Part shown: positions 15,630-62,296 of the stretch, one piece after another | How the letters are laid out: every line of letters begins with the position of its first letter | How positions within the stretch are numbered: position 1 is the stretch's first letter | NCBI GenBank assembly: GCA_963751455.1 | Contig: CAVVUN010000015.1 | Coordinates: 1,472,001-1,536,000, forward strand | Direction: 5' to 3' | DNA length: 64,000 nucleotides | Source: Nitrospirota bacterium | GTDB lineage: Bacteria > Nitrospirota > UBA9217 | Program-made: the position numbers and the translations under genes | Notes under the pieces: model-generated | What the model was told of the DNA's origin: nothing | Databases searched by the model: none | Seen by the model: only the letters and a program-made list of their open reading frames with translations

Positions 15630-15658
15630 TTGACAAACGAAACCAGTTATCTTAATAT
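15630..15658 (+). promoter_or_regulatory. Putative sigma70 promoter of the nuo operon
   Basis: TTGACA-N17-TAATAT in an AT-rich divergent gap. Confidence 0.5.
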
Positions 15659-17309: not shown

Positions 17310-18509
17310 ATGTCTCCTACCGATACCGAGAAGAAAGAAATCGTTCAGAAGGAAATAACCTTAAATATGGGTCCGCAGCATCCGGCCACCCACGGCGTGC
17401 TTCGCCTGGTGCTGGATCTGCAGGGAGAAACCATCGTCCGCTGCGACCCGCGTCCGGGCTACCTCCACCGCGGCATCGAGAAGCTGATGGAGAACAGGAC
17501 CTACCATCAGAACATCCCGATCACCGACCGGCTTGAGTATATCACCTGCATGAATAACAACCTCGGCTGGGTCGTGGCCGTTGAGAAGCTTGCCTCCATC
17601 GAGGTTCCGGAGCGGGCCGAGTTCATCAGGACGATCATGGCCGAGCTTACACGGCTTTCCGGGCACCTTGTCTGGCTTGGAACCCATGCACTCGACATCG
17701 GAGCCATGACGGTCTGCATGTACACCCTGCGGGAAAGGGAACTTATTCTCGATCTTGCGGAGATGGTTACAGGAGCCCGCCAAACCGTAAGTTATGCCCG
17801 AATCGGAGGCGTCCGAAACGATGTGTCGCGCGAGTTCATCGACAAGTGCCGGGAATTCACGGAGATTTTCCCCAAACGTCTTGAAGAATATGACACGATG
17901 ATCCGTCAGAACCGGATCTGGCTCAAACGCACGGTCGGAATCGGCGTAATGACGGCGGAGGAAGCCGTCAACTACGGCCTGACGGGCGGTTCCCTGCGCG
18001 GCTCGGGCGTAAACTACGATCTCCGTAAAGTGGAACCCTATGCTGCATACGATAAGGTGGAATTCGACGTGCCGCTCGGCCGGAACGGAGACGTCTATGA
18101 CCGGTATATCGTGCGGATCAACGAGATGCGCCAGAGCAACCGTATCATAAAGCAGTGCCTGGACATGCTCCCGGCCGGCCGCGTTGTCAGCGACGATCCG
18201 CGCTACGCCATTCCCGAAAAGAGCCAGGTGATGCAGAGCATGCAGTCGCTCGCGCACCAGTTCGTACTCATGAGCAAATGGATTCCGATGCCCAAGGGCG
18301 AGGTCTATGTGGCGACCGAGGCGCCGAAAGGCGAACTCGGCTTCTATATTGTAAGCGACGGAAGCGGCAGGCCGTACCGCGTCAAGATCCGCGCCCCATC
18401 CTATGTGCATATAAGCTCCCTGCCGAAGATGGTGACCGGGCACATGGTTGCCGATGTGATTGCCTGTATCGGGACGATCGATATTGTGCTCGGCGAATGC
18501 GATCGATAA
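17310..18509 (+). CDS. nuoD: NADH-quinone oxidoreductase subunit D
   Basis: [41 protein letters not shown]. No NiFe CxxC pairs. Confidence 0.96.
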
Positions 18510-18525: not shown

Positions 18526-18879
18526 ATGAATCTGAGAGAGATCACCCGGCTTCTCAAAGCCAAAGTGCTGACAGGCGACAGTATCATCGATGAAATCGAA
18601 GTGGACCGCTGCTTCAGCGCTGACCTGATGAGCGACGTCCTCGGCCGGACCTACGCGAACGGCATCCTGATAACGGGTATCACGAATCCCCAGGCGGTTC
18701 GCACGGCCGATATTGCGGAAATCAAGGCGGTATGTGTTGTTCGCGGAAAGCAGCCGGAGGCGGGGGCGGTTTCCCTCGCAAAGCAGAAGGATATACCGCT
18801 TTTCATCACGGAACTGACCATGTTCGAGGCATGCGGAATTCTTTATACGAACGGCCTCCGGGGGGTTGCCGAACGGTAG
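18526..18879 (+). CDS. DRTGG-domain protein
   Basis: SADLMSDVL, LITGITN.QAVRTA.IAEI.AV.VVRGK.P, MFEACGILY. Confidence 0.85.
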   Translation: MNLREITRLLKAKVLTGDSIIDEIEVDRCFSADLMSDVLGRTYANGILITGITNPQAVRTADIAEIKAVCVVRGKQPEAGAVSLAKQKDIPLFITELTMFEACGILYTNGLRGVAER

Positions 18880-18887
18880 ATTGTGTG

Positions 18888-19841
18888 ATGACAGAGCAGG
18901 GTAAAGATCAGGCAACCGTTGACCGGTTGACCAAGACCCAAGAGATGGTCTATGAGCTTACCGTCGGCGAGGTGATGGCCCCGAAGATGGTGAGCGTCGG
19001 GCCGGACCAGACGATGTCCGAGTTCAGGATGATCCTGCGCGATAACCGCATCTCAGGGACCCCAGTCGTGGAAAACGGGAAACTGGTGGGGATGATCAGC
19101 ATCGAAGACCTGATCAATGCCTTCAATGACAACGCGATCAACTCCACGGTACGGGAGAGGATGAAACCTAAGGTCGAGTGCCTGTACGATGACGAACTCC
19201 TGGTCCACTGCATTGCCAAGTTTTCGAAATTCGGGTACCGCCGCTACCCGGTGCTGAACCGGGACAATGAACTGCTGGGCATAATTACGAAGGGGAGCAT
19301 CGTCGAAGGGCTGCTCAAAAAACTCGAGGTCGAATACGAACAGGCTGAATCGAAGGCATCGTTGGTACGTCACCGCCCAACCATGAGGAAATTTTTCGAA
19401 GACGTATCCGCTGACGAAATTAGTTTCACGTTCAAATATTTTGTTGCCGGCCAGACGCTCAAGGAAGCAGGCAAGGCGGCCAGCGAGCTCAAGAACGCCC
19501 TGAAAAAGCTGGGTGTCTGTCCGCCGCTCCTCAGGAGGATCGGCGTTGCGACATACGAGGCCGAGATCAATCTCGCATCCTATACAACAGGAGGAGAGAT
19601 CCGTGCCCAGGTTGAAAAATGGGGAATCCTCGTTGAAGCGATCGACAGCGGTCCCGGCATTCTCGACGTGGAACAAGCGCTGCAGCCGGGATATTCAACG
19701 GCGCCAGATTGGGTCCGGGAACTGGGGTTTGGGGCGGGCATGGGGCTCGTAAACATTAAGAAATGCGCCGATGAGATGAACCTGAAATCATCGGTGCCGG
19801 ACGGAACGCATCTGACAATGCAGTTCTATTATACGAGTTAA
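18888..19841 (+). CDS. CBS-pair plus RsbT/anti-sigma-type Ser/Thr kinase (HATPase) fusion
   Basis: Two CBS domains (ISGTPVV..GKLVGMIS; RRYPVL...LLGIIT), then AG.AASELK..L..LG, YEAEIN, DSGPGI.D...A...GYSTA...RELGFGAGMGL. Confidence 0.88.
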   Translation: MTEQGKDQATVDRLTKTQEMVYELTVGEVMAPKMVSVGPDQTMSEFRMILRDNRISGTPVVENGKLVGMISIEDLINAFNDNAINSTVRERMKPKVECLYDDELLVHCIAKFSKFGYRRYPVLNRDNELLGIITKGSIVEGLLKKLEVEYEQAESKASLVRHRPTMRKFFEDVSADEISFTFKYFVAGQTLKEAGKAASELKNALKKLGVCPPLLRRIGVATYEAEINLASYTTGGEIRAQVEKWGILVEAIDSGPGILDVEQALQPGYSTAPDWVRELGFGAGMGLVNIKKCADEMNLKSSVPDGTHLTMQFYYTS

Positions 19842-19846
19842 CGAGT

Positions 19847-20206
19847 ATGGTGCCCATGAAACTGAACGACCTCGTGAAGGAATTCAGCCTGGAAGTGAAA
19901 GCGGGCGCGGACAGCCTCAACGCCGAAGTGACCGCGGGATACGTAAGCGATCTTCTGTCAGACGTTCTGGCGCACGCCGAAGACGGCGCCCTTTGGGTTA
20001 CGCTGCATATTCACCAGAATATCGTGGCCGTCGCTTCGCACAAGGGGCTCTGCGGGATCCTTCTGGTCCAGGGCAGGCAGCCGGAAAAGGACACCATCAG
20101 GAAGGCGGAGGACGAGAAGATCCCGATTATGGTCAGCCCTCTTTCCGCATTCGAGCTTGTTGGCAGATTGTATAAGGCGGGAATTCGTGGCGCTGAGGCG
20201 GATTAA
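19847..20206 (+). CDS. DRTGG-domain / HPr-kinase N-terminal-like protein
   Basis: GYVSDLLSDVL, LWVT...H.NIVAVA, A.DE.IPI..S...AFE..GRLY. Confidence 0.85.
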   Translation: MVPMKLNDLVKEFSLEVKAGADSLNAEVTAGYVSDLLSDVLAHAEDGALWVTLHIHQNIVAVASHKGLCGILLVQGRQPEKDTIRKAEDEKIPIMVSPLSAFELVGRLYKAGIRGAEAD

Positions 20207-20933
20207 GGCTGATCTTCATCTGCACACATGCCTTTCCCCCTGCTCCGGTCTGGATATGTCGCCCCGTGAAGTGGTGAATGCGGCGATCCAGAAGGGTTTG
20301 GGCCTGATCGGCATATGCGACCATAACTCGGCCGAGAACGTTCTTGCGGTGAGGAAGGCCGGCGAACGGAACGGTTTGATGGTCGTGGGCGGTATGGAAG
20401 TGACCTCTTCGGAGGAAGCGCATTTACTCGTATTTTTTGATTCGGATGACGATCTTCTGGAGTTCCAGGACTATATTTACCGGCACCTGTCGGGCCGCAA
20501 CGACGAACACTCCTTCGGTTTGCAGGTGATCGCCGACGATGAGGACGGGGTAACCGGTTTCTGCGACCGGCTTCTGATCGGCGCTACATCGCTATCCGCG
20601 GAAGCGATCGTTGCAAAGGCCCACGCGGTGAAAGACGGCAGCCTGGTGATCGCGGCGCACGTTGACCGTGAATCGTTCAGTATCATCGGCCAGTTCGGGT
20701 TCATTCCCGCGGGGCTGGGACTGGACGCTCTTGAAGTGTCGGCGAAAATGACAGCGGCTGAGCTCAAGGCCCGGCATCCCGAGTGCGGGAACTACCCGGT
20801 CGTAACCGGGTCGGATGCGCACAGCCCTGACGACATCGGAAAGTGCTTTACCTGGGTGACCGTCGGGGACGGATCAATCGCAGAGATCAGGAAAGCCCTG
20901 GCGGGCACGGATGGAAGGAAGGCGGAGTGCTGA
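20187..20933 (+). CDS. PHP-domain phosphoesterase (putative phosphatase)
   Basis: DLHLHTCLSPC, CDHNS, GME.T..EE.H, AHVDR, GSDAH. Confidence 0.88.
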   Translation: MALRRIKADLHLHTCLSPCSGLDMSPREVVNAAIQKGLGLIGICDHNSAENVLAVRKAGERNGLMVVGGMEVTSSEEAHLLVFFDSDDDLLEFQDYIYRHLSGRNDEHSFGLQVIADDEDGVTGFCDRLLIGATSLSAEAIVAKAHAVKDGSLVIAAHVDRESFSIIGQFGFIPAGLGLDALEVSAKMTAAELKARHPECGNYPVVTGSDAHSPDDIGKCFTWVTVGDGSIAEIRKALAGTDGRKAEC

Positions 20934-20937
20934 GTCA

Positions 20938-21471
20938 GTGGAAGACCTCTCGCTGCATGTTCTTGATATCGCCGAGAACTCGGTCCGCGCAGAAGCAAAA
21001 ACAGTAGAGATCATCGTAACGAGGGACCTTTCCCGGGATATTCTCCGGGTCGAGGTGGTGGACGACGGGAGGGGAATGGACGCAGCGACGCTTGCAAGCG
21101 TTCGCGACCCGTTCTTTACCACGAAACATAAGAAAACCGGCCTTGGCATCCCGCTCCTGTCGCAGGCGGCTGAACAGACAGGAGGACAGTTCTCTGTCGA
21201 TTCCCGCCGCGGAAAAGGCACCCGGGTTGCTGCTTCGTTCCGGTGGAGTCATGTAGACCGGCCGCCGGTAGGCAGCATGGCTGAAACGCTCCTGACGCTT
21301 ATTGCGGGGCATTGCGACAGGGATTACATATACGAAGAACGGGAAGGAGAGTATTCCTTCCGGTTCGATACCCGGGAGATCAAAGCGGATCTCGAAGGGG
21401 TCCCGATCACCGAGCCGTCCGTGCTGAACGCGATCAGGGACATGCTGAAGGAAAATATCAGGATCAGGTAA
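20938..21471 (+). CDS. Stand-alone HATPase (histidine-kinase-like) ATP-binding protein
   Basis: EDLSLHVLDIAENS, DDGRGM, DPFFTT, GLGIP, HVDRPP.G, FDTREIK. Confidence 0.88.
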   Translation: MEDLSLHVLDIAENSVRAEAKTVEIIVTRDLSRDILRVEVVDDGRGMDAATLASVRDPFFTTKHKKTGLGIPLLSQAAEQTGGQFSVDSRRGKGTRVAASFRWSHVDRPPVGSMAETLLTLIAGHCDRDYIYEEREGEYSFRFDTREIKADLEGVPITEPSVLNAIRDMLKENIRIR

Positions 21472-21548: not shown

Positions 21549-22064
21549 ATGAGTAAAGAAGCTGCCGTACAAAATAAAACCGAAAATGAACCGGTCGAAA
21601 CGATCCCACGGGAGAAGTTCCAAAAGATCGATGCGATCATAGAAAAATACAGGGACAAACCCGGCTCACTGATCCCGGTCCTGCAGCAGGCGCAGGACGT
21701 CTGCGGTTATCTGCCGCATGCCGTGCAGCGCTATATTGCGAAGGGCATGAAGATGTCGCCGAGCGTCGTGTTCGGCGTTGCAACCTTCTATTCGTTCTTT
21801 ACGCTGGTGCCGCGCGGAAAACACGTCATCCGGGTCTGCCTGGGCACTGCCTGCTATGTCAAAAGAAGCGAAGAGATCCTCCTTAAAATCAAGGACGAAA
21901 TGGACCTCGAGGTCGGAGAAATAACCAGGGACAAGAAGTATTCGCTCGAGGCTGTACGGTGCCTCGGCGCCTGCGGGCTGGCGCCCGTCGTCGTTGTCGG
22001 ACAGGACACGTATGGCGACGTGGCGGCGACGAAGGTGATGGACATCATTAAGAAGTACGAGTAG
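21549..22064 (+). CDS. nuoE: NuoE/HndA/HydC-type [2Fe-2S] subunit
   Basis: GVATFYSFF, VCLGTAC, RCLGACGLAP. Confidence 0.9.
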   Translation: MSKEAAVQNKTENEPVETIPREKFQKIDAIIEKYRDKPGSLIPVLQQAQDVCGYLPHAVQRYIAKGMKMSPSVVFGVATFYSFFTLVPRGKHVIRVCLGTACYVKRSEEILLKIKDEMDLEVGEITRDKKYSLEAVRCLGACGLAPVVVVGQDTYGDVAATKVMDIIKKYE

Positions 22065-22161: not shown

Positions 22162-22545
22162 ATGGCCAAACTGACGATTGCGGATTTGAAGAAGATCAAG
22201 GAAACGTACCACGCCAGTCAAGCCCTGCGCGAGGGCGGATTCCGGGTAAAGATTACGGTGCATATGGGCACCTGCGGAATTGCAGCGGGGGCGCGTCCGA
22301 TCATGAATGCGATCATGGAAGAACTGTCCAAGTCGAACCTCAAGGATGTTGCGGTCACTACTTCGGGCTGCGCGGGACTCTGCAGCAAGGAGCCCATGAT
22401 CACGATAGAACTTGCGGGCGAACCGCCGATCAAGTACATCGCCCTGACCGAGGACAAGACACGGAAAATTTTCGCGCAGCACGTCGTAGCCGGAAAGCCC
22501 GTAGCCGAGTACGCTTTGGTCGCCGGGCATGAGACGACGTATTAA
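22162..22545 (+). CDS. HndB/HydD-type thioredoxin-like ferredoxin subunit
   Basis: VHMGTCGIAAGAR ... TSGCAGLCSKEP ... I..QHVV.G.PV.EY (three Cys). Confidence 0.85.
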   Translation: MAKLTIADLKKIKETYHASQALREGGFRVKITVHMGTCGIAAGARPIMNAIMEELSKSNLKDVAVTTSGCAGLCSKEPMITIELAGEPPIKYIALTEDKTRKIFAQHVVAGKPVAEYALVAGHETTY

Positions 22546-22684: not shown

Positions 22685-24475
22685 GTGGAGACGACATACC
22701 GTTCAAACATAATGATCTGTGCGGGCACCGGCTGCGTGGCAAACGGGTCCCTTAAGGTCAAGGACGCGCTGGAGACGGAGCTTATCAAGCGCAATCTTCA
22801 GAACGAGGTCAAAATCGTCCTTACCGGGTGCAACGGGTTTTGCGCCAAGGGCCCGGTCATCGTGGTCTACCCCGAAGACATCTTTTACCAGATGGTAAAG
22901 CCCGACGACGTGCCCCATCTCGTTGAGGAACACTTCATCAAGGGCCGTCCCGTACAGAAGTTCCTCTATACGCCGCCCGCGCAGAAAACCGCGATCCCGG
23001 TCATGAATGACATTCCGTTCTTCAAGCACCAGGTACTTCGCGCTTTGAGGAACCGCAGCCTGATCGATGCGGAGAAGATCGAAGAGTATATCGCGCGCGA
23101 CGGGTACATGGCAGCAGCCAAGGCGCTCCTGGAGATGACGCCCGAACAGATTGTGAACGAGATGAAAAAATCCGGACTCCGCGGCAGGGGAGGAGCAGGA
23201 TTCCTGAGCGGACTGAAGTGGGAGCTCTGCGCCCGCGTTCCGGGCGAGATTAAATACATCCTGTGCAACGGCGACGAGGGCGACCCGGGCGCGTTCATGG
23301 ACAGGAGCGTGATGGAAGCCGACCCGCACTCCGTGCTCGAGGGCATGATCATTGCGGCCAAGGCGATCAGCGCCCATTACGGTTATATCTATGTCCGGGC
23401 CGAATATCCGCTGGCCGTGCACCGGCTCCAGCTTGCCATCGACCAGGCAAAAGAGCGTGGGCTTCTGGGCAAGGACATTCTCGGTTCGGGCTTTGACCTC
23501 GATATTGAGATCTACCAGGGCGCCGGCGCCTTTGTATGCGGCGAGGAAACAGCGCTCATGGCCTCCATCGAAGGGAAACGCGGCATGCCGCGCGCCAAGC
23601 CGCCGTTCCCTGCGGTCAAGGGCCTCTGGCAGCGGCCCTCGGTTCTGAACAACGTCGAGACCTTTGCCAACGTGCCGCCGATCATCCTGAACGGGGCCGA
23701 CTGGTTTGCGAGCCTCGGCACCGAGAAGAGCAAGGGCACGAAGGTGTTTGCGCTCTCCGGAGCTCTGAACAATATCGGTCTCGTGGAAGTGCCCATGGGC
23801 ATCCCGCTCAAGACCATCATTTTTGATATCGGCGGAGGCGTCAAGGGCAACCGCAAATTCAAGGCCGTGCAGATGGGCGGACCGTCCGGCGGCTGTATCC
23901 CGGCATCGCTCATTGAGACGCCGGTCGACTACGAGAACATCAACAAGACCGGCGCGATCATGGGGTCCGGCGGTATGGTGGTCATGGACGAGACGACATG
24001 CATGCCGGCCATGGCAAAGTTCTTCCTCGAATTTACCGAGGACGAGTCCTGCGGCAAATGTGTCCCGTGCCGTATCGGGAACAAGACGCTCCTCAACATC
24101 CTCACCCGGATCACGAACGGCGAAGGCCGTGAAGGCGATATCGAGCTGCTGTTGAACCTGTCGCAGCAGATCAAGGATACTTCGCTTTGCGGTCTGGGCC
24201 AGACATCGCCCAACCCCGTGCTCACAACCATCAAGTATTTCCGGGAAGAGTACGAGGCGCATATCAAGGACCACAAGTGCCCGGCGCGCGTCTGCACGCC
24301 GCTTATCGAATTCAAGGTGAACGAGGAAAAATGCAAGAAGTGCGGTCTCTGTTCCAAGAACTGTCCGGTCGGGGCCGTAACCTGGGAGAAGGGCAAGACG
24401 GCCTTTATTGACAGGGAAAAATGCACCAAGTGCAAGACCTGCATAAAGAACTGCCGGTTCTGGGCGATTGATTGA
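22685..24475 (+). CDS. nuoF: Long NuoF (HydB/HndC-type) flavoprotein with extra N-terminal [2Fe-2S] and C-terminal 2x[4Fe-4S] domains
   Basis: CAGTGC..CNGFC; SGLRGRGGAGF; DEGDPGAFMDR; GGPSGG; ESCGKCVPCR..CGLG; H..DHKCPARVC; two C-terminal CxxCxxCxxxC. Confidence 0.92.
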   Translation: METTYRSNIMICAGTGCVANGSLKVKDALETELIKRNLQNEVKIVLTGCNGFCAKGPVIVVYPEDIFYQMVKPDDVPHLVEEHFIKGRPVQKFLYTPPAQKTAIPVMNDIPFFKHQVLRALRNRSLIDAEKIEEYIARDGYMAAAKALLEMTPEQIVNEMKKSGLRGRGGAGFLSGLKWELCARVPGEIKYILCNGDEGDPGAFMDRSVMEADPHSVLEGMIIAAKAISAHYGYIYVRAEYPLAVHRLQLAIDQAKERGLLGKDILGSGFDLDIEIYQGAGAFVCGEETALMASIEGKRGMPRAKPPFPAVKGLWQRPSVLNNVETFANVPPIILNGADWFASLGTEKSKGTKVFALSGALNNIGLVEVPMGIPLKTIIFDIGGGVKGNRKFKAVQMGGPSGGCIPASLIETPVDYENINKTGAIMGSGGMVVMDETTCMPAMAKFFLEFTEDESCGKCVPCRIGNKTLLNILTRITNGEGREGDIELLLNLSQQIKDTSLCGLGQTSPNPVLTTIKYFREEYEAHIKDHKCPARVCTPLIEFKVNEEKCKKCGLCSKNCPVGAVTWEKGKTAFIDREKCTKCKTCIKNCRFWAID

Positions 24476-41128: not shown

Positions 41129-41179
41129 CGGGGACGACACTCAAAAAATCGTAAGGACAGCATGTCCGAGGAGGGGATT

Positions 41180-42952
41180 ATGACAAGATCGTGGAAATTA
41201 TCAGTTATGGCTCTTTTAGTCGCGTTGGTATCAGTGTTTGTTGCAGGATGCAGCAAAAGCAGCAGCAGCGGCGCGCCGGCGCAAACGAATTCACTGTCCG
41301 GGATCGTGGCCGCAGGTTCGCCCGTGGCCGGGATCGTGAATATCAAGGGTGCGAACGGAGCGGAAGCGTCATCAACGATCGCATCGAACGGAACCTTTAA
41401 CATCGATGTGAGCGGCCTGACCGCGCCCTATGTCCTGTATGCGGAGGGCACGGTGAACGGCCGGAGCGTGAGCATGTACTCGGCTGCGGTTGCGACCGGG
41501 ACCATCAATATCACGCCGATCACCGATTTTATACTCCGGTACGCCCTCGCAGGGACCGATCCGGCGGCTGCGTACGCGGGTTGGAGCACGACGCAGGTCA
41601 CTGCCGATGCGCTTTCCACCGCGGAAACGAGCGTTCAGAACCAGCTCGAGCCCGTACTGGCTGCCGCGAGCGTGCCTGGAACGGCAAACCTGATGACGGA
41701 TGCTTTTACCGCTGATCACACGGGCATGGACCTGGTGCTCGATACCACGGCCATTTCATACAGCGGAGCCGATGCAACCGTGACGAACCTTGTGACCGGG
41801 TCCACCTACACCGACAGCGTCGCAAGCCCGTCCGGTGCAGCCGGTCTGCCTCCTTCGGACCAGGCGGCGACTGCGGCCTCGTTGACGGACGCTGAAACGA
41901 TCGCCGCGTTCTGGCAGGCGGTCACGACGCTGTTCGCCGCGCAGCCGTCGCAGGCGCAGATCGATGCCACGCTCGCCCCGATGATCGCCGCCGATTACCT
42001 GGAAGACGGCCGGGACAAGGCCTCGCAACTCGTCAACTTTGAGATCCCCGCGGGCATGACGTTCGCCCCGACGATCGTGAAGGCGATCATTCCGGCGCCT
42101 GCCGGATATACCAAGGCGTATGAGATCCGGGTCGTCGCCGCCCTGGGCAGTGTATCAATGACCGTTGAGACAATAATGTCGTATAACGGCGCGAACTGGT
42201 TTTGGTACGGAAACAGGGCCTGGACCAGCTATCTCCTCAGGCCCCTTGCCGAAATGAAAGTGTCCAGCGCGGGCACAGCATCGTTCACAACCAGTCTCGG
42301 CCTGGTCATGAACGACGAAACGTACGACAATCCGGCCTGTACGGTCAAGATGTACGCCTATTGCAACGGCGTGCGTTCGGCCATTATCACCGGCCCCGGC
42401 TTGCCTGCGGGCGGCCTGATATTGACGCATACATATCCTAAGAATGAATTTAGAATTTACAACCAGATGAATAACGCCGACCGGTACGTATTGAGCGACG
42501 ATGCGGCTATCCAAGCCATCCCCGATAATGCCGTGTACACCTTCAACCTCTATGCGGAAACCGCGGATGTCGTGAGCCTGAACAACACGCCGCTTACGAG
42601 CGGAACGTCGCTGAACGCAAAGAGGCCGCTCTTGAACTCGGAACTTTCCGCCGCCCGGTTCCCGAGCCTCTCAACGCCGAGCACTCATGCCCTGGTCGAT
42701 GCCGCGATCCCCGGCATCCAGACCGTAAGCTGGACCGCGCCAACAGGTATGACAGTCTATCACGTATACTGGAACTGGACAGGCGGAGGAAATTTCAACT
42801 ATGCAAGCACCGACGTCGATGATGGCGAGACCACAACGACGATCGATACTACGGGCTTTTCGGCGCCCGATGTGAACACGCAGACCTGGCTTTATGTTTC
42901 ATCAAGAGACGCGTATGAAAGGGAGTACCGGATCGACTGGCAGTTCCAGTAG
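41180..42952 (+). CDS. Large surface lipoprotein, function unknown
   Basis: Lipobox VAGC, Ser linker, G..A.G.PV...V.IK.ANG, NITPITD, F.ADHTG.D.VLD; GAGGAGG RBS. Confidence 0.7.
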   Translation: MTRSWKLSVMALLVALVSVFVAGCSKSSSSGAPAQTNSLSGIVAAGSPVAGIVNIKGANGAEASSTIASNGTFNIDVSGLTAPYVLYAEGTVNGRSVSMYSAAVATGTINITPITDFILRYALAGTDPAAAYAGWSTTQVTADALSTAETSVQNQLEPVLAAASVPGTANLMTDAFTADHTGMDLVLDTTAISYSGADATVTNLVTGSTYTDSVASPSGAAGLPPSDQAATAASLTDAETIAAFWQAVTTLFAAQPSQAQIDATLAPMIAADYLEDGRDKASQLVNFEIPAGMTFAPTIVKAIIPAPAGYTKAYEIRVVAALGSVSMTVETIMSYNGANWFWYGNRAWTSYLLRPLAEMKVSSAGTASFTTSLGLVMNDETYDNPACTVKMYAYCNGVRSAIITGPGLPAGGLILTHTYPKNEFRIYNQMNNADRYVLSDDAAIQAIPDNAVYTFNLYAETADVVSLNNTPLTSGTSLNAKRPLLNSELSAARFPSLSTPSTHALVDAAIPGIQTVSWTAPTGMTVYHVYWNWTGGGNFNYASTDVDDGETTTTIDTTGFSAPDVNTQTWLYVSSRDAYEREYRIDWQFQ

Positions 42953-43091
42953 GTCGGTCCCCTTAAGACGACCGCTCTGCGTTGAAATACGGCGGCCCTG
43001 GAGTCATGGTGCACAGGGTTTTGATTTAGAAGGCGACTTGGATTCTTAATTTTTAGTCGGATCTTTCGCACTCAGAGGAGAACATGACATA

Positions 43092-43511
43092 TGATCACGG
43101 CCACCATGCTCAATTCAAAGTCGAGCAAGCCTTATGTGCAGCACGGCAAGTTGTGCGCGGACCTGAATGTGGACGCCGTGGTTGTTATCCGGTTCGACCT
43201 GGCTACGCGCCCTACACGGCGGTCATAGGGAGCGGACCGGCAAAGGCCTCTGTGTGGCTGCTGACGTCAAGCTGATCAACCGTGATTGCAAGTTCGTGGC
43301 CATGACCCCGGACATCGTGAAGGGTAAGGGCATGAGGATGATTTCGGACAAGAAGGCCGGCATGGTGTCGGATGAGCTCGTGTACAGCGGCTCGGCTGAA
43401 GAGATGTTTCTTGAGGCCATTTCCAGGAATGCGGCGTATTACTTATTGATGAATATCCCAGAAATAAATTCTGATTTTAAATCTTACACGATGACGCTGA
43501 ATTGTATTTAA
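43092..43511 (+). pseudogene. Frameshifted gene fragment
   Basis: Protein-like reading ..KLCADLNVDAVVVIRFDL / GYAPYTAVIGSGPAKASV / AADVKLINRD.. passes through three frames. Confidence 0.4.
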
Positions 43512-43534
43512 AGAACGCCGAATGGGGAGCGAAT

Positions 43535-44593
43535 ATGCACGACAATAAACCGAAAAAAGGGGAATTTGTCAAAGTAGTCTTGGTTTTCGCGCTGCTGGCG
43601 TCGACCGGTTGCGCAACGACCGTTAAGACGAATGTGCTCATGCCGGGCCGAATCGACCAGGCAGCGCAATTCAAGAGTATCGCGGTCATGCCGTTCGAAG
43701 GGACCGATGGAAAAGCGTTTACGTCGGCCGTGGAGAGTGCGCTCGCGGGCGTTATCATCGACGACAAGCAGTATTTTCAGATCGTGGACAGGGGAAGCCT
43801 CGACAAGGCCATGAACGAGATGAAGCTCTCGCTGAGCGGCGTCGTGGACGCGAACACAGCGGCCCAGGTGGGCAGGATGGTAGGGGCCAGGGGCATTTAT
43901 ACGGGCATCGTCACGGCATCCACCTTGAACGACGACCCTTATACCGAAAAGAGGAGAAAGTGTTCGTCCTATAAGACAGTGACCGACAGCAAGGGGAGAA
44001 AGTCCGAGGAATGCACGCGCTGGTACGATAGCGAAGTGTCGTGCACCAAGCGGACGACGTCATTCGCGTTTGCGCCCAAGCTGGTGGAGGTCGAGACCAG
44101 CCGGCTCGTCTACTCGAACACTTACGACAGCGCTCTGGAGTCGAAGGGCTGCTCTGACGAGAGCAAGGGGCTGGAGGACGGACAGATAATGAAAAAGAAA
44201 GCGCAGGAAAGCGCCGTGCAGAAGTTCCGCATGGACGTGGCCCCGTACTACGCGGCCATGGAGTTCACCCTGAAGGACTCCACCGGCGATATCTCTGCGG
44301 ATGCTGCAAAACAGAAGCTCAAGGACGGATTGAAATTCGCGAAAGGCAACAGAATGGACCGGGCCTGCTCGCTCTGGAGCGATGCAAAGGAATCCGCGCA
44401 GGACTCGATCACCATTCTGTTCAACCTGGGCGTGTGCGCGGAAACCCAGGGCAGGCCCGAAGAGGCCCTTGTCCTGTACCGGCAGATCGACAAGACGCTT
44501 ACCAAGCCTGACGACCTGGTAAACAAGGCCCTCGCCCGGGTAACCGACATGGTCGAAAAACGTAAAAAGCTCGGGCAGCAGGTGGCGAAGTAG
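43535..44593 (+). CDS. CsgG/HfaB-like lipoprotein with C-terminal TPR
   Basis: Lipobox STGC; IAV.PF.G, F.IVDR..LD..M.E.KLS.SG.VD..TA..VG..VGA; TPR-like FNLGVCAE..G..EEA...Y. Confidence 0.75.
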   Translation: MHDNKPKKGEFVKVVLVFALLASTGCATTVKTNVLMPGRIDQAAQFKSIAVMPFEGTDGKAFTSAVESALAGVIIDDKQYFQIVDRGSLDKAMNEMKLSLSGVVDANTAAQVGRMVGARGIYTGIVTASTLNDDPYTEKRRKCSSYKTVTDSKGRKSEECTRWYDSEVSCTKRTTSFAFAPKLVEVETSRLVYSNTYDSALESKGCSDESKGLEDGQIMKKKAQESAVQKFRMDVAPYYAAMEFTLKDSTGDISADAAKQKLKDGLKFAKGNRMDRACSLWSDAKESAQDSITILFNLGVCAETQGRPEEALVLYRQIDKTLTKPDDLVNKALARVTDMVEKRKKLGQQVAK

Positions 44594-44635
44594 CGGGATC
44601 GGCAAGAATATTAGCGGGGAGTAGCGGGGACTTCC

Positions 44636-44833
44636 TTGAGCGGCGACTTGCTTGCAAAAGAACCGGCGGACAAGGCGCTCGAAGAAATTGCCAGCGACCC
44701 GGCAAAAGGACCGGCGAAGGAAGTTGAAAGGCTTACCGGCCTGTTCAAGGAGGCCGTTTATATATCGGCCGTCAAATACAGCGATCTTTTGAATGAGGAA
44801 AAAATTAAATTTGCGGAAAAGGCCAAGCGGTAA
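44636..44833 (+). CDS. Short ORF, possibly a C-terminal gene remnant
   Basis: 65-aa helical, charged ORF with a TTG start and no recognised motif. Confidence 0.25.
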   Translation: MSGDLLAKEPADKALEEIASDPAKGPAKEVERLTGLFKEAVYISAVKYSDLLNEEKIKFAEKAKR

Positions 44834-44920
44834 ATGGAAGACCTGTGACACATAGGTATGGAGTGTATGAAGAAGGCACAATATCGCCGAAGTATCTTGA
44901 AGAGGCATAAGGAGGAAACC

Positions 44921-45700
44921 ATGGACGGATTGAAGGTTCGATCAAAGAAGGAAAGCAATGGTTTGGCTGTGACATTGGCGGTCGTTGTTATCATGACCAT
45001 TTCGGGATGCGGCGGGGGCATGCTGAACGTTAAACAGGCCTTCGACGCGTCGACGAAAATGACCGTTATGGAGTTTTTGGTTAAGACGGAATATTTCGGT
45101 GATTCGACCGTCGACTTGAGGGTCCCCGCGCGGTCGACCTTCAATCCCGACACACGCGCGCCGAAGACGTGCCAGGGAAGCTGCGTCATCGAGACGGCGC
45201 CCCTGTCCGCAGGATACCGCGAAATCGCGGAAGGCATCTATAACGAAATGCGGTCGGGGCTTGGGAAGCCGGAGCTGCAATTCGGCAGATGGAGCGAGGT
45301 GCCGTCTAAGAAAGCGGCCTTTGGCATAACCGCACCTGATTGGGGCAAGACGGATCACAAGCTCATCATCTGGCCATATGTCTCCGTGTATTATGACGAA
45401 TCGATCAAGCCGCCCATGAGCAACAAGGGAGCGGAATATTCGTATAATCTGAAGGGAAGCGTGAGCTTCACGATTTGGAGGAAAAACGACAAAGGCAACC
45501 TGGAAGTGGTCAGGCCGAACATGACGGGCCACTATGACTTGGCCAGCGTTTCGCGAAGCGTCGGAAAGCCATCCGCAACGCCTCTTACAATAGCCGAGCT
45601 CGAGAAGCTTATGCCTTCATCTACGATTTTTAATGAACTTCGGGAAAAGAGCCTGGAAGGGGTGAAGCGGTTCGTCAAGGAGCTGAAAGAGGCGAAGTGA
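44921..45700 (+). CDS. Hypothetical lipoprotein
   Basis: AAGGAGG RBS; lipobox ISGC. Confidence 0.7.
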   Translation: MDGLKVRSKKESNGLAVTLAVVVIMTISGCGGGMLNVKQAFDASTKMTVMEFLVKTEYFGDSTVDLRVPARSTFNPDTRAPKTCQGSCVIETAPLSAGYREIAEGIYNEMRSGLGKPELQFGRWSEVPSKKAAFGITAPDWGKTDHKLIIWPYVSVYYDESIKPPMSNKGAEYSYNLKGSVSFTIWRKNDKGNLEVVRPNMTGHYDLASVSRSVGKPSATPLTIAELEKLMPSSTIFNELREKSLEGVKRFVKELKEAK

Positions 45701-45762
45701 CGCTCAGTGCGGGGCTTGATCGGCAAGCCCCGTATTTCTGCTCTCAGGAGGGGAGGGAAGCC

Positions 45763-47715
45763 ATGATACATAGTGTGATTTATAAAACAGCCGGTGTGAT
45801 TTTGACGGTTCTATTACTGATAGTCGGCGGTTGCGGAGAGGATAAAAAATCAGACCAACTAAGCATCAGTCCGCAGAATCACACGATGAACGTGGGAGAT
45901 TCGCTGCAATTTTCCGTCTCAAAAGGCGGCACGGACGTTACGTCCTCTGTTTCTTGGGTCATGTCCAATACCGGCATAATCTCCATGAGTTCGACCGGTC
46001 TGGCGGTTGCTCTGCGCGAGGGAACTACGAAGATAACCGCGACTTACAATAACGAATCAGTCTGGACGAACATCACGGTCCAGTCGCAGGGCGGCGGCGC
46101 TGCAACGCTGCAATCCATCACGATAGGGCCGGATACGGCCTCGATAGCCGTGAGCGGTACACAGCAGTTTACCGCAACTGGGCATTATTCCGACAGCAGT
46201 ACCCAGAATCTGACTTCTGTTGCCACCTGGGCTTCCGACAACAATGGGGTAGCCACGATCAGCTCCACAGGGCTGGCCGCAGGCGTGAGCGCGGGAACGT
46301 CTTACATCACCGCTTCGTATAGCGGGAAAACAAGCAATAGCGCCACCCTGACGGTCACGACGAGCGGCGGGGGTGGAGGAGGCGGCGGAGGCAGCGGTTC
46401 CAATACGATTTCTACTAATATCAACGCGGCCAGCGTAGTGTCTCTCGGAACGACCACGAATACCTCGATCGCTGCGTCAGCCCTTGGCGGGTATATCGAT
46501 TTTCCCACCACGGACGGCAAGGGCTACGGCATCTACGTTACGGCCGACTCGGCTTCGCTCTCATTGGACGCGGGGTACAACAACGGAGGCAACTGGGTTT
46601 CGATCGGAGTCGGTTCGGTCAATCCCTCAAGCACGAGCGACTACCTGCTCGGTTTCAAGGCCGGTGCCGCGGATTACATGGCGAAGATATCCAACTCGGC
46701 GAACAGCGCGGTCACGTTCGCCTTCACTGTCCGTGAGGCGGATATGGGAGGCTCTCCGTTCGGGACCCCGCTTTCCGTAAGCCCAGGCACGCCCGCCTGG
46801 ATCGGAGCAGCCTGGCTGGCCGGAGATTTTTCGTTCGTAGCGGGAGGTTCCACGGCAACTTTGCAGCTCGACTCCCTGACAGCCGGCGTTGACGTCGCTG
46901 TCTACGAAGCGGACAAAACCACAGTTGTTCTTCCCAAGACCACTGACGGCACGGAGATGCAGCTCACCAAAACGGTCAATCTGGCGGGTCTGACGCACGG
47001 GAACACCTACGTTGTAAGAGTGTCATCTCTTGTCGGGGGCACGAGCGGCGCGAGCATAGGCAGGCTGACCATAACTTCCTCGGGCGGTGCATACGATCTT
47101 TCCTCACTGTCGGGTGCATGGCTATTAGACACTACAGCGGACAGAAGCGCGGGATACGATTTTATCATTACCGACGGCAGCGGCTCGATCACATCGAGCA
47201 GTCTCTACAGCGCGTCCACGCCCACGTACTCTGTTCAGAGCAACGGCGCTTTCACCATTTATACTCCCAGCTCCGATGGCACTACGTTGATTATTTCGGG
47301 GACCCTCGCTTCGTCCACGACAGGGACCCTGAGCGGAGTCGGCCCGAACAGCACGATATCCAAAATCTCCGATCGCGCGCTTTGTCAGGGGGCATGGACC
47401 GGCGCGCTGTTGGTGAGCAGTTCGCCCGTGCACGATCTTGCTTTTGAGATCAAAGCTGATGGCACGCTCGATACCGCGCAGACAAGGACCATCACTCCGT
47501 CGGGCGGCGGCGCGGCCGGGACCATATCGAGCGGCGCGATGGTGGGTCAGGGAAACCTCTGCGTCGGATATTTCACTACTTCTGCGGCAGAGCCCTATAA
47601 TAAGTTTCGGATAAACGGCACGCTAACAACCGGCGCGACGACAACGCTGAGTGGGAATTTCGACAATGATTCCGGAAGCGCCTGGCCCGTGGGCACGGTC
47701 AGCCTGACAAAATAG
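45763..47715 (+). CDS. Ig-like (Big_2) domain surface lipoprotein
   Basis: Lipobox VGGC; two Big_2 repeats (QFTATG.YSD.S..NLT..ATW.S.N..VATIS..GLA); poly-Gly linker; Ser/Thr/Gly-rich beta domains. Confidence 0.8.
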   Translation: MIHSVIYKTAGVILTVLLLIVGGCGEDKKSDQLSISPQNHTMNVGDSLQFSVSKGGTDVTSSVSWVMSNTGIISMSSTGLAVALREGTTKITATYNNESVWTNITVQSQGGGAATLQSITIGPDTASIAVSGTQQFTATGHYSDSSTQNLTSVATWASDNNGVATISSTGLAAGVSAGTSYITASYSGKTSNSATLTVTTSGGGGGGGGGSGSNTISTNINAASVVSLGTTTNTSIAASALGGYIDFPTTDGKGYGIYVTADSASLSLDAGYNNGGNWVSIGVGSVNPSSTSDYLLGFKAGAADYMAKISNSANSAVTFAFTVREADMGGSPFGTPLSVSPGTPAWIGAAWLAGDFSFVAGGSTATLQLDSLTAGVDVAVYEADKTTVVLPKTTDGTEMQLTKTVNLAGLTHGNTYVVRVSSLVGGTSGASIGRLTITSSGGAYDLSSLSGAWLLDTTADRSAGYDFIITDGSGSITSSSLYSASTPTYSVQSNGAFTIYTPSSDGTTLIISGTLASSTTGTLSGVGPNSTISKISDRALCQGAWTGALLVSSSPVHDLAFEIKADGTLDTAQTRTITPSGGGAAGTISSGAMVGQGNLCVGYFTTSAAEPYNKFRINGTLTTGATTTLSGNFDNDSGSAWPVGTVSLTK

Positions 47716-51880: not shown

Positions 51881-54800
51881 ATTAGACACCGAACTCTGTC
51901 CATAAGAACAGCATCGAACCCGCTTCCTGCATTACCGGCTACAGAAAAATCTACGGTCTCAACCTATCCTCGTCTTCTCGTCATAATCTCGGTGCTCTTC
52001 TTGGTATTTCTGCTGCCCTGCACCGAAGTATCCGCGGCCACCTATGTCAGCGGGACAATTTCCGCGAATACTACATGGACACTCGCCAATAGCCCCTACA
52101 TCGTCACAGGGGACATCTCCGTAAACGGTTCCACGCTCACGATCCAGGCCGGGGTAACGGTCAAGTTCGATCAATATGCGACACTCTTCATCGACGGGGG
52201 CGTGTTACGGGCAGTGGGGACTTCTTCAGCGCCTATAACCTTTACCTCCAGCGAAGCGAGCCCGACCCCCGGGTACTGGGGCGGCATCTTTTTTTCTGAC
52301 AGCACGGTGGGCACGAACACGTTGCTTCAGTACGTGACGGTTGAGTACGGGGGGGCGAACTACGGCAGCAACCTCTATATCTACTACGCGTCTCCCACGA
52401 TCAAGAACTGCACGATCCGGAAAAGCTCGGGTTACGGGATTTATACTTATGGCGGTTCACCTGTCATCCAGAACAACTCCATAAAGGAGAACTAGACAGC
52501 GGGGATATACGGCAACTCCGCCTCGTTCACGGCAACGGCGAACGCGATCACGAACAACGGCACGAACGGGATCCAGGATAACACGGGTTCTGCACTTTCA
52601 ATATCCGGGAACAGCATCTCGGGCAGCGGATCATACCCTGTGCGGATGTCGATCAAACAAAGCGGAAATGTAAACACCTATGGAACAAACGGCATCAACG
52701 CAGTGTATGTAGTTGGCGATACGGTAAGCCAGAGCCTGACGATGAAGAATACAGGCATTCCCTACATCGTCACGGCCGCCGACATCTACGTAAGCGGTTC
52801 CACGCTCACGATCGAGGCCGGAGTAACGGTCAAGTTCGATCAATACACGACGCTCTGGGTCGGTGAGAGCGGCGTGTTACGGGCAGTGGGGACTTCTTCA
52901 GCGCCTATAACCTTTACCTCCAGCGAAGCGAGCCCGACCCCCGGGTACTGGGGCGGCATCTTTTTTTCTGACAGCACGGTGGGCACGAACACGTTGCTTC
53001 AGTACGTGACGGTTGAGTACGGGGGGGCGAACTACGGCAGCAACCTCTATATCTACTACGCGTCTCCCACGATCAAGAACTGCACGATCCGGAAAAGCTC
53101 GGGTTACGGGATTTATACTTATGGCGGTTCACCTGTCATCCAGAACAACTCCATAAAGGAGAACTAGACAGCGGGGATATACGGCAACTCCGCCTCGTTC
53201 ACGGCAACGGCGAACGCGATCACGAACAACGGCACGAACGGGATTTACGACAGCACGGGTTCCGCACTTTCAATCTCCGGGAACAGCATTTCGGGCAGCG
53301 GATCGTACCCGGTCAGGATACCGATCAAACAGACCGGGAACGTAAACACCTATGGAACGAACGGCATCAACGCTGTATACGTCGTCGGCGGCACAGTAGA
53401 CCAGAGCCTGACGATGAAGAATACAGGCATCCCCTACGTTGTAGCGAGCGATATCAACGTAAGCGGTTCCACGTTCACGATCGAGGCCGGGGTAACAGTC
53501 AAGTTCGATCAATACGTGACACTGTTTGTCACTGACGGGGGCGTGCTGCGGGCAGTGGGAACGTCTTCCTCACTTATTACCTTTACTTCAAGCGAGTCGA
53601 GTCCGACCCCCGGGTACTGGGGCGGCATCTTTTTTTCTAACGCAGGCGCGAGCACGCTGCTTCAATACGCGACTGTGGAGTATGGAGGGGCGAACTACGG
53701 CAGCAACCTCTATATCTACTACGCGTCTCCCACAATCAAGAACTGCACGATCCGGAAAAGCTCGGGACACGGGATATTTGTCAATGGAAGCGGCGCAAAT
53801 CCTAATATATCCTATACCTTATTAACCGCCAACGTCAACGGTCTCTATGCCACAGGTTACGCAAATCCCGTTATTTCAACCAACGACATTATCAGCAATA
53901 CCGATTACGGGGTCTATAATGAGCCGTGGTCCACTGAAGTGAATGCCGAAAACAACTGGTGGGGACATGCCAGCGGTCCATATCATCCCACTTTGAACAG
54001 CGCGGGCCGCGGGAACAAGGTCAGTGATAACGTAGATTTCTCCCCCTGGAGAACGGTAAGCAGCGCGCAGGATGTCACTCCTCCAGCCGACCCGGTCGTT
54101 ACGAGCCAACTTGCCACGAAGAACAATCCGTACACCCTCGCAGGCACGAAGGAGGCCAATTCATCTATCTTCGTCAATAACACCCAGGTCATACCCGTGA
54201 ACTCCAGCACGACCTGGCAGTACCAAGTGACGCTTCAGGAGGGCCCGAACAGTTACTCCGTCAGTTCACGGGACTCCGCGGGCAACCCGAGCAATTCTAT
54301 AGACGTGACTGTCATCCTCGACACAAATGCGCCCACAATAGAAAGCTCTTTGCCTGCCGACAACGCCTGGGTGAAGACCTTGTCCACAGTGACGTTCGAT
54401 CTCAACGATTCCTATTCGACAATCAATTTTTCAACCACGTTCTCCGGCGCAAACATGAAGAACTCCTCCGGACAGGCGGTTGCAGGCTCATGGACCAGTT
54501 CCGGACCAAATAGGGCTGTATTCACTCCTTCCACTGCTTTGGCCAACGGCGCATATACTGTTACCCTATATCCGACCGACGCTCTCGCAAACAAGAGGAC
54601 AGTGACCATTGCTTTTACCCTGGATTCCGTGCCGCCCGCGCGGCCCACGATCGATCCCTTGACAGCGCCCGTTCTCAGCTCCGCAGTCGCTATTAGCGGT
54701 ACGAAGAGCCTTGATTCGACAGCGATTGTCGTCACTATTGATTGTGCCGGAGCAACGGTCTATGACGCATGGTATCCTGATGACCTCACATGGAGCACAG

Positions 54801-60800: not shown

Positions 60801-62296
60801 TCACTGCCGAGGTTATCGCTCCGTCTGCTCCAGAGGGCGGATTTATGTTGAGCGCAGGAGATAACAATGGAACTTACCTTCCGCATCTCCACTGATTCCA
60901 CGGCTCCTGACACAGTTTGGCCACGATGACGGCGCGGACGGCTCAGGACGTGTCAGTCAGCCTCACTGCAAACATCACTATTGTGAGCGTTATCCCGGTC
61001 ATCAGCACCACGCCGTCCTATATCGACACCGGTATGGTGCGTGGAGAGCAGAAGACCGACAGCTTCACACTTATGAATGTTGGTGAAGAGACGCTCAGGA
61101 ACGCCAGGATCGAAGGCCCGTCCACATCGTGGATGCGTCTTACCCGGGACAAGACGATAGGAGATATTGCTGCGGGTGGATCGGTCTCTGTCGGTTTTAT
61201 GTTCAGTCCACCGGACACACTTGCTCAGGGAGTTTATGAAGATAAAATTATAATTTATTCCGACAACCACATGCCATACAATTGCTTTATCCAGGTCACG
61301 GTGACGTCAACTGCCGTCGGCGACATCCTTTTCGATGTCCTGAACGAACTGATGCAGGACGTATCCGGCGCAACCATCACGTTCCAGAACCAGACCGTGT
61401 ACGAACTTATCTATACCGTCAATACCGAATCGGACGGGACGGTGATGAAGTACGATATTCCCGAGGGAAGGTATCTCTTCAATATCTCGGCTCCAAATCA
61501 CAAGCCAACGTCAGGTACATTTACGATAAGTCCCGGCCTGACTACAATGGTCTCGATCGCCCTTCAGGTGAACCTTGTCGACATCCAGTGGTCGGTCACA
61601 CCGGTAGTTATCGAAGACCGGTATGAGATAACAGTCAGCCAGACATTCGCCACGAATGTACCCGTGCCGGTCCTGGTCACGGAACCGCCGCTTGTGACCC
61701 TGCCTGTTCTTGAACCGGGACAGGTGTTCAATAGCGAATTCACGGTCACCAACAACGGCCTTATTGCGGCGGAGAACGTGATCATGAACTTTCCGACGAG
61801 TTTCAGTGAATATGATCTCGAAATTCTTTCAACCATACCGAAGACCCTTGCGGCACAGCAAAAAGTCGTTGTCTTGTACCGGGTGACGAGAAAGCCGACC
61901 ACAACTGCCATGAACCTCGAGGCAGAAGAGGCGGCTACTTCATATCCTTACGCCTCGCTCTTTACCGAGATCATGGGCTACGGCGGGACCTGCACAATGG
62001 CTACCGTGATCGGCGTTTCCGGCACCTATGAAATGTGCCCGAATACTGCGAACGAGTCCACGGGTTCGGCCGGTACAGGCCATACGATCGTGGCGCAGTA
62101 TGAATGCGGTGACAGTGGGTCGGCCATTGTATCCCTTCCGATTCCGAATATAGGAACCGTAGGCGGCTGGACGCAGAGCGGCGGAGGAGGCGGCGGCAGC
62201 GGACAAGGCGGCGGCATCGGCGGCGCGCCGATAACGCCTCTGGAGGATGACTGCTTCAGCCCGCCTCCACCATGTAGCTCACAATGTTGTAATTAA
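51881..62296 (+). pseudogene. Giant (~3470-codon) secreted beta-helix / Ig-like / FN3 surface protein, interrupted
   Basis: Signal peptide; beta-helix repeats; many DT.(A/P)P Ig-like and FN3 modules. ORF-track pieces 51845, 52640, 53414, 59009 and 60917 share one frame. Breaks: TAG 52493, TAG 53165, TGA 58091, and indels near 58120, 58240, 58322, 58996, 60863 and 60915. Confidence 0.8.
52199..53244 (+). repeat. Direct repeat: two identical 374-bp blocks at 672-bp spacing
   Basis: 52199-52572 matches 52871-53244 by eye. The flanks and a third copy near 53540-53765 are diverged. Confidence 0.85.

Follow-up and report, generated by a model that had tools for sequence, protein, structure and literature searches.

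The enzyme type closest to the one considered here is Nuo-Bfu, a complex I with a BfuABC input predicted for Nitrospirae and Planctomycetes (clade 39), whose confurcation of NADH and ferredoxin to quinone is, in the accessible parts of that work, a prediction only (PMC9304861). The window analyzed in this study, a stretch of 64,000 nucleotides of a Nitrospirota genome (contig CAVVUN010000015.1, positions 1,472,001 to 1,536,000), resembles that description, as far as it is accessible, in carrying nuoA-D, bfuC, a long bfuB, nuoG/bfuA and nuoH-N in one cluster, and judged by its genes the host enzyme is of this already predicted type. Unlike Nuo-Bfu as described, the window adds HndB and, between nuoD and bfuC, a cassette of five genes encoding a small DRTGG protein (DRTGG-1), a kinase fused to a pair of CBS domains, a second DRTGG protein (DRTGG-2), a PHP-family metal-dependent phosphoesterase and a stand-alone GHKL ATPase domain (HATPase), and the block containing them is exchangeable with a plain cNMP-NuoEF block. 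The main text of the Nuo-Bfu paper has no match for kinase, phosphatase, DRTGG or HndB, and gene maps in its supplement may show the cassette (PMC9304861).

The same gene types surround the group D (M2e) HydS gene beside bifurcating [FeFe]-hydrogenases (TamHydS, Cthe_0335), and in the passages available group D hydrogenases are classed as sensory owing to nearby kinases (PMC8163306, PMC3561251). The order in a P. distasonis record (L073) is DRTGG, kinase, FeFe-like gene, DRTGG, PHP and ATP-binding protein. Unlike the group D cluster, the window has no HydS between kinase and DRTGG-2, which are separated by 5 nt, or genome-wide; its kinase is fused to a CBS pair and its partner is complex I. 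The initial annotation had remarked on the missing H2-sensing gene, and the PF02906 [FeFe]-hydrogenase domain indeed has no match in this genome, which is 100% complete (5.37% contamination); of 14 control genomes, 2 gave a match. Because no [FeFe]-hydrogenase domain is found there, the genome has no HydS-like sensor; NiFe hydrogenases are encoded elsewhere in it.

Stand-alone HATPase and HydD/HndB genes also occur in the Bfu operons of Acetomicrobium mobile (NiFe-HydABCSL) and Acetobacterium woodii (HydABC), going by the accessible passages (PMC8880783, PMC3315566). There, the A. mobile HisK and HydD are described as operon-encoded proteins that the purified NiFe enzyme does not contain, with a presumed role in maturation or regulation (PMC8880783, PMC9304861), and A. 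woodii HydE as resembling kinase ATP-binding domains and not being part of the enzyme (PMC3315566). The fifth cassette gene is probably the HisK/HydE of this literature, an equivalence based on description and gene position, not on sequence alignment. Unlike these operons, the window adds the kinase, two DRTGG proteins and the PHP protein, and its HATPase models as MutL/ParE-like.

Likeness to SpoIIAB-SpoIIAA and RsbT-RsbS/RsbR lies in a GHKL Ser kinase without a DHp domain and two small paralogous neighbors with a Ser at a helix start and, as with RsbR, one DRTGG paralogue is sometimes fused to a sensor. Unlike SpoIIAB/RsbT systems, the cassette uses DRTGG proteins where those have STAS and PHP where those have PP2C, and it lacks a sigma factor but includes an additional GHKL ATPase; Pfam matched no STAS domain among the five genes, Pfam matches, fold and orthologues place both small proteins in DRTGG, and no PP2C or sigma gene was found among the 20 operon proteins scanned (Pfam, NCBIfam). 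We found no description or test of the whole five-gene cassette in titles, abstracts or available passages, a coverage outside which most subscription papers fall, and the accessible parts of PMC3478167, PMC10102598, PMC7768429 and PMC11406978 add nothing on it. Of the gene set, HisK/HydE, HydD and the kinases next to group D HydS have already appeared in print, but are uncharacterized; the set as such is known from hydrogenase operons.

Inheritance with the bifurcating input genes

The five open reading frames (ORFs) lie on the + strand between nuoD (17310-18509) and nuoE/bfuC (21549-22064), with gaps of 16, 8, 5, -20, 4 and 77 nt from nuoD through genes 1 to 5 to bfuC; these ORFs, gaps and their domains confirm the five named genes, tightly packed or overlapping between nuoD and nuoE, that had first been noted. 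They are DRTGG-1 (18526-18879, 117 residues), the CBS-kinase fusion (18888-19841), DRTGG-2 (19847-20206, 116-119 residues, with an alternative start ATG at 19856), PHP (20187-20933, 248 residues) and the ATPase (20938-21471, 177 residues). Pfam assigns two CBS domains (E 2e-24) and HATPase_c_2 (E 3e-8) to the kinase gene, domains on which NCBIfam agrees, PHP (E 4e-8) to gene 4 and HATPase_c (E 1e-15) to gene 5; the DRTGG matches of both small proteins are weak (E 1e-4 and 5e-5) and below the curated cut-off. ESM Atlas gave nothing beyond Pfam. Each gene is single-copy in the genome, and the differences to 12 relatives fall largely on third codon positions (DRTGG-1 640/878; kinase 1799/2455; DRTGG-2 653/949; PHP 1451/2251; ATPase 1062/1737). 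All five are genuine, undamaged genes evolving under purifying selection. Their GC and GC3 equal those of the nuo genes and give no support to a recent horizontal insertion; the nearest named database records are metagenome-assembled genomes of Nitrospirota.

We surveyed 401 genomes of this phylum that are at least 85% complete. The kinase profile matches 109 of them and the HndB profile 128, from which we set aside 13 genomes, none with the kinase, in which the sole match lies inside a frame of 635-1069 residues (an HndB-like domain in fusion, probably BfuB). Kinase and stand-alone HndB then occur together in 107 genomes, the kinase only in 2, HndB only in 8 and neither in 284. PF02906 was found in 15 genomes, three of them kinase-positive, and hence 106 of the 109 kinase genomes have no [FeFe] domain; each of the three has one frame of 608-612 residues, HydA-sized, which lies beside bfuB in the two fetched. 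Synteny was counted in a single set of loci (L040-L070), since some of the genomes also occur under other identifiers. Of these 31 loci from near relatives, 27 keep the full order nuoD-DRTGG1-CBS/kinase-DRTGG2-PHP-ATPase-nuoE, three run off the end of their contig but agree with this order as far as they go, and in the remaining one a plain nuoEF separates nuoD from the cassette. In a record titled Betaproteobacteria (L042) the entire operon is present, its proteins 64-93% identical to those of the window; the record is either a mislabelled bin or a transfer.

The family of the window itself is divided, with the kinase in 41 of 54 genomes and none in 13. Five of the cassette-less members were searched, and the ortholog of the window's BfuB is missing from them (best match at most 57% identity, versus about 90% in carriers). 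In four of the five the orthologous operon reads nuoABCD-cNMP-nuoE-short nuoF-nuoG-N, with nuoA-D 74-92% identical; the fifth stretch is the other, paralogous nuo operon. The nuoF of the plain block encodes 419 residues without B5 or B3/B4. The swapped block thus comprises the cassette, bfuC, hndB and bfuB, eight genes in all, against a cNMP-domain gene and plain NuoEF. Because they are swapped as a block in orthologous operons, these eight genes behave as one exchangeable input module. Both blocks stand in tandem in one operon in two genomes (G004 and G020), a third (G006) has the plain block just upstream, and the short NuoF is present in 10 of 13 kinase-negative and 11 of 41 kinase-positive family genomes. 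Most of the NuoD tree lacks resolution, with stars on 4 of its 19 branches, and the order of swap events is not fixed by it.

In every plain module, seen in seven genomes, a gene for a stand-alone cNMP-binding domain of 159 residues lies directly 5' of nuoE-nuoF (for example L237:7385-7861, + strand; likewise in L238, L239, L240, L033, L034 and L035). It may be an undescribed regulator of canonical complex I input.

These patterns show that the cassette follows the bifurcating input genes and not complex I or hydrogenase, and the initial annotation's contention that it serves HydBC/HndB rather than the hydrogenase is upheld by the 107 co-occurrences, the mere three of 109 genomes with PF02906 and the eight-gene swap. 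A functionless relic carried over from a hydrogenase operon, a reading in keeping with the same gene set flanking [FeFe]-hydrogenase-like genes elsewhere (including in accessible passages of PMC3561251), is scarcely credible and already contradicted by conservation: divergence is third-position-biased in all five genes, catalytic residues are invariant, and 109 genomes carry the kinase, 106 of them with no [FeFe] domain.

Downstream of the cassette the order is bfuC, hndB, bfuB, nuoG/bfuA and then nuoH-N, completing a full nuoA-N cluster. The bfuC gene (nuoE/hydC; 21549-22064, +) is part of the swapped block; hndB/hydD (22162-22545, +) encodes 127 residues and is a free paralogue of the N-terminal (B5) domain of BfuB, aligning to BfuB residues 2-96 with an hhalign probability of 98.6, and its C38, C70 and C74 are conserved in 45 of 48 sequences. 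The product of bfuB (long nuoF/hydB; 22685-24475, +; 596 residues) has the B5, B1, B2-site and B3/B4 ligands, namely N-terminal C12/17/49/53, B2-site C439, H526, C532 and C537, and two C-terminal 4Fe-4S motifs. The long BfuB has the motifs AFM and GGPSG, which we take to be of bifurcating type, and the short NuoF lacks them (TFK, GGAST). The B2-site ligands match C438/H525/C531/C536 of A. mobile as given in section 6 of PMC9304861. Loss of the B5 domain from T. kivui HydB destroyed bifurcation, and the B5 site holds zinc in one archaeal Nfn, according to the available parts of PMC12018979.

Kinase and DRTGG proteins

The fusion protein has its CBS pair at about residues 22-142 and its kinase domain at 172-317. 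The best solved relative of the latter is SpoIIAB (E 7.5e-12). Its N-box E224/N228, D253-x-G-x-G and G2 box (G280-G286) are invariant in 92 homologues, as are E226, G257 and G-x-G-x-G, and the lid R277 is kept in at least 90%. The N-box E-x-x-x-N, DxGxG, G2, lid Arg and lack of a DHp domain are those of the SpoIIAB/RsbT type, and on these features the protein classes as a SpoIIAB/RsbT-like Ser kinase with intact catalytic boxes. A long kinase ORF in L205 appears to be an upstream extension only.

In the CBS pair, site 1 (S71-x-x-D74) is kept in 119 of 120 close homologues; S/T-x-x-D is the ribose-binding motif of adenylate-binding CBS pairs. Solved relatives single out no particular ligand. 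Sensing of adenine nucleotides, that is of energy charge, by the pair is a proposal. The initial annotation had noted the CBS domains as a point of difference here; they are present, and they are not special to this operon: among 80 metagenome loci, chosen for their likeness to the window's kinase, 71 have the fusion. In one relative (L192) a REC domain replaces CBS at the kinase N-terminus.

DRTGG-1 and DRTGG-2 are paralogues with the fold of AF1212, the CBS-pyrophosphatases and the HPr-kinase N-terminal domain, and the DRTGG family matches 89 of 92 DRTGG-2 orthologues. A model of DRTGG-1 (predicted local distance difference test, pLDDT, 95) matches AF1212 with Z 17.1 and the regulatory region of a CBS-pyrophosphatase (3l31) with Z 14.2; searches of the Protein Data Bank by sequence returned no relative of DRTGG-2 alone. 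Both proteins share a short motif: D33-L-M-S36 in DRTGG-1, with D33 and S36 invariant in 61/61 sequences, and D32-L-L-S35 in DRTGG-2 (numbered from ATG 19856), with D32, S35, W47, T49 and N55 invariant in 92/92 locus-paired sequences and S35 kept in 89 of 90 distant representatives. The motif D-L-[LM]-S is absent from the genome's unrelated DRTGG protein and from AF1212. In the model S36 stands near the N-terminal end of helix 35-41, and the phospho-Ser of SpoIIAA also sits at a helix start. By conservation and modeling, the invariant Ser of both DRTGG proteins is likely to be a phospho-site, and the RsbT-like character given to the kinase at the outset fits its intact motifs and this Ser.

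DRTGG-2 stands immediately 3' of the kinase in 97 of 100 loci and is likely the core partner and substrate. In a paired alignment of kinase and DRTGG-2 (92 rows, effective number 57), the two highest mutual-information scores were Z 11.0 and 8.9, and shuffling gave a maximum of 8.6 and a mean of 7.0; this shuffle ignores shared ancestry and the top pairs exclude S35, so that we claim no coupling. DRTGG-1 is accessory and lost in some lineages: it was called in 28 of 41 other Nitrospirota loci, and where it is lacking only DRTGG-2 was found genome-wide in 10/10 genomes checked. In six of ten long DRTGG-2 homologues scanned, an [FeFe]-hydrogenase-like domain is fused in front of DRTGG-2, in the manner of a stressosome sensor-STAS protein. 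Apparent DRTGG-2-PHP fusions (long PHP ORFs in L105, L111, L127 and L200) are ORF-calling artefacts, DRTGG-2 being a separate overlapping ORF there.

In a variant that goes back to the initial annotation, the direct targets of the kinase would be HndB or subunits of Bfu, and the DRTGG proteins would modulate it, an option favored by the tight linkage to bfuC-hndB-bfuB and by HndB T37, conserved in at least 90% beside C38. SpoIIAB/RsbT kinases, however, act on small dedicated partners encoded beside them, and with DRTGG-2 adjoining the kinase in almost every locus and its Ser invariant we regard direct phosphorylation of the enzyme as quite improbable.

The phosphoesterase and the GHKL ATPase

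The metal ligands of the PHP protein (H11, H13, H46, E71, H79, H158, D210 and H212) are invariant in 53/53 sequences. The phosphoesterase assignment of the initial annotation stands in that all ligands are present, and is weakened for a protein phosphatase in that the nearest solved relatives act on nucleic acids or nucleotides; by its sequence relatives PHP may act on nucleotides. The cassette could then be a nucleotide-signal module in which PHP hydrolyses a small nucleotide (pAp, ApnA or similar) bound by CBS and DRTGG domains, the DRTGG Ser being a ligand contact. Among the best solved and NCBIfam matches of PHP, none of which reaches the cut-off, are EndoQ, 3',5'-nucleoside bisphosphate phosphatase and RNase RNM; the DRTGG-1 model matches a CBS-pyrophosphatase regulatory region, as noted above; and among CBS-pyrophosphatases only the DRTGG-containing forms respond to diadenosine polyphosphates, according to the accessible part of a preprint (bioRxiv 10.1101/2020.04.07.028951). 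Under this explanation, however, an intact SpoIIAB-type kinase would have nothing to phosphorylate; moreover, only the DRTGG proteins of the cassette have the D-L-[LM]-S motif, and the cassette persists where the kinase has no CBS pair (0 of 41 loci); we consider it unlikely.

The fifth protein had been listed as a stand-alone HATPase in a kinase cassette. It does stand alone, with no HisKA/DHp domain matched and the chain beginning at the N-box helix; membership among kinases is less apt. Its model (pLDDT 91.6) aligns with MutL over residues 1-169 (Z 14.0, root-mean-square deviation 2.8, 144 aligned), with ParE (Z 12.1) and with TopoVI-B, and with histidine kinases over residues 1-106 only (Z at most 9.3). 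Because the MutL-type fold spans residues 1-169 against 1-106 for kinases, the protein is better read as a minimal MutL/ParE-type GHKL ATPase, as which it models; the histidine kinase reading was set aside since there is no DHp domain and the MutL/ParE alignment is fuller and higher-scoring. H7, D10, N14, H105 and D107 are invariant in 54/54 sequences, and the invariant H7 and H105 make an unorthodox His site possible. In MutL/GyrB/Hsp90-type ATPases the catalytic Glu precedes the N-box Asn by four residues and a transducer domain follows; here the catalytic position holds the invariant Asp10 (54/54) and 177 residues leave no room for a second domain. A partner might supply the transducer domain.

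Such a fold invites the view of the cassette as a constitutive maturation kit, in which the ATPase and HndB would serve either to insert the B5 cofactor or as chaperones of BfuB, with only loose coupling to the remaining genes. The ATPase is of a MutL/Hsp90-class fold, HndB copies the B5 domain, and of the cassette-type set the A. woodii hydrogenase operon, as quoted in the accessible text, has only HydE and HydD (PMC3315566). But BfuB paralogues of the same genome that have B5-type N-terminal domains have no such genes, and the ATPase is kept no more strictly than kinase, DRTGG-2 and PHP (each in 38-39 of the 41 other Nitrospirota loci), which makes a kit of this kind very improbable.

A proposed switch and its alternatives

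We favor, at about even confidence and from sequence comparisons, a cassette that acts as a post-translational switch setting the assembly or activity of the predicted bifurcating BfuBC module, with CBS as an exchangeable input. Adenine nucleotide would bind the CBS pair and tune the kinase; the SpoIIAB/RsbT-like kinase would phosphorylate DRTGG-2 S35 and DRTGG-1 S36, which would act like STAS antagonists; and PHP would remove the phosphate from these serines. In the weakest step, the phospho-state would gate the GHKL ATPase, which together with HndB might load, mask or remodel BfuB. The sensor is exchangeable, being CBS in the window, REC in one relative and, in the clostridial/Bacteroidota type, a HydS that resembles an H2 sensor. 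In favor of the switch count the co-occurrence and the block swap, the SpoIIAB-like kinase with its invariant boxes, the Ser kept in both DRTGG paralogues, the exchanged input domains and the absence of A. mobile HisK and HydD and of A. woodii HydE from the purified enzymes.

Several observations weigh against this switch. The surveyed genomes are related, so the 107 co-occurrences are a pattern and not independent events or a statistical test. The cassette is dispensable for Bfu generally, because two Bfu in the window's genome and those of four cassette-less relatives lack it; that in the window's genome the Fdh-linked BfuB locus, the CODH-adjacent BfuB locus and the second plain nuo operon lack HndB and cassette together counts, on the other hand, in favor. 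Of at least 573 metagenome loci, the 80 ranking highest in similarity were used, a choice that under-samples the HydS-containing clostridial type. Among the 26 of these that span at least 10 kb the partner enzyme varies, which speaks for the switch (bfuB in 20, hndB in 18, the NiFe large subunit in 10, HdrB in 7, FeFe HydA in 1 and nuoD in 1), and 6 have no bfuB in the stretch covered, which speaks against it. No CBS pair is present on the kinase in any of the 41 other Nitrospirota loci fetched, and the Asp of CBS site 2 is replaced by Ser (110/120) or Asn (7) in the window's lineage, being kept in 44 of 52 distant homologues. The nearest solved relatives of PHP (EndoQ, 3e0f, 7ug9) are nuclease and nucleotide phosphoesterases, not Ser phosphatases. 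Finally, beside the CBS-less kinases REC (33/41 loci) and sigma-54 regulators (at most 21/41, an overcount since the profile also matches REC domains) permit a transcriptional output.

In that alternative the phospho-switch would feed a two-component or sigma-54 regulator of bfu/nuo expression. Partner-switching kinases normally control sigma factors, and in the 41 Nitrospirota loci outside the window's CBS type REC proteins (33 loci), HAMP-HisKA kinases and sigma-54 regulators are frequent neighbors, with a BfuC-REC fusion in 24. Yet the window's operon contains no regulator or sigma factor gene, nor does the block conserved in its family, and a REC domain joined to BfuC suggests that the enzyme itself is what is controlled; we find a transcriptional output distinctly unlikely. 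The fusion places BfuC (NuoE) behind the REC domain (for example L037:2356-3213, - strand), and its architecture suggests direct two-component control of a bifurcating enzyme subunit.

Other arrangements were also observed. The cassette lies between nuoG and nuoH in L199 (G172), and L192 (G128) reads nuoABCD-HK-sigma54-REC-kinase...bfu followed by a second plain nuoEFG. In metagenome contigs L100 and L113 nuoABCD lies within the cassette (DRTGG1, CBS-kinase, nuoABCD, DRTGG2, ATPase). A CBS-less kinase shares one frame with RecR in L223 (10868-11947, - strand), with an ORF of similar length in L038, both in family members with an FeFe-Bfu operon; this may be a chance fusion at a rearrangement. 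A protein of about 255 residues combining REC with a glycine-cleavage-H-like domain (L186:4553-5320, + strand, the copy in which both domains were scanned) recurs beside the cassette or bfuC in other Nitrospirota, and BfuC is fused behind an HdrA-like FAD/Fe-S fragment in cassette-carrying Hdr/Mvh operons (L072:4344-5255, L089:2490-3356).

About 19 kb from the nuo operon treated here, and shortly before the window begins, the genome has another complete nuo operon of canonical type (G000:C15:1452000-1469000, - strand; 26-52% identity); it also encodes CODH/ACS, Fdh-Bfu, formate-tetrahydrofolate ligase and a CODH-adjacent Bfu. Within the window, a site upstream of nuoA (15630-15658, +) is promoter-like by consensus alone, with 10 of 12 positions matching, in a scan that found 10 sites against 5.6 expected by chance, and the terminator scan was at chance level (12 found, 10.2 expected). 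Series of long ORFs that Pfam does not match at E 1e-6 fill 41162-47715 and 58225-63666, and large Ig-like repeat surface proteins are encoded nearby at 45697-47715 and 53414-58093.

Bfu/HydABC enzymes are central to anaerobic energy conservation, and the regulation of their activity is essentially unstudied; the kinase-like genes beside them have hitherto been read as the output of an H2 sensor. Because the cassette is strictly retained in 106 genomes with no [FeFe] domain and is exchanged as a block with bfuC-hndB-bfuB, the bifurcating core is indicated as the target. A wider and more doubtful possibility is a phylum-spanning signaling system for electron bifurcation, in which the kinase, phospho-Ser DRTGG antagonists, PHP and the mini-GHKL ATPase would use HndB to switch BfuBC between bifurcating and idle, and in which, in these Nitrospirota, the adenylate state would pick Bfu or plain cNMP-gated NuoEF as the input of one complex I. 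The analysis singles out DRTGG S35/S36, kinase E224/N228 and ATPase D10/H105 as residues for testing, and a single complex I found with either a bifurcating or a plain input offers a natural comparison.

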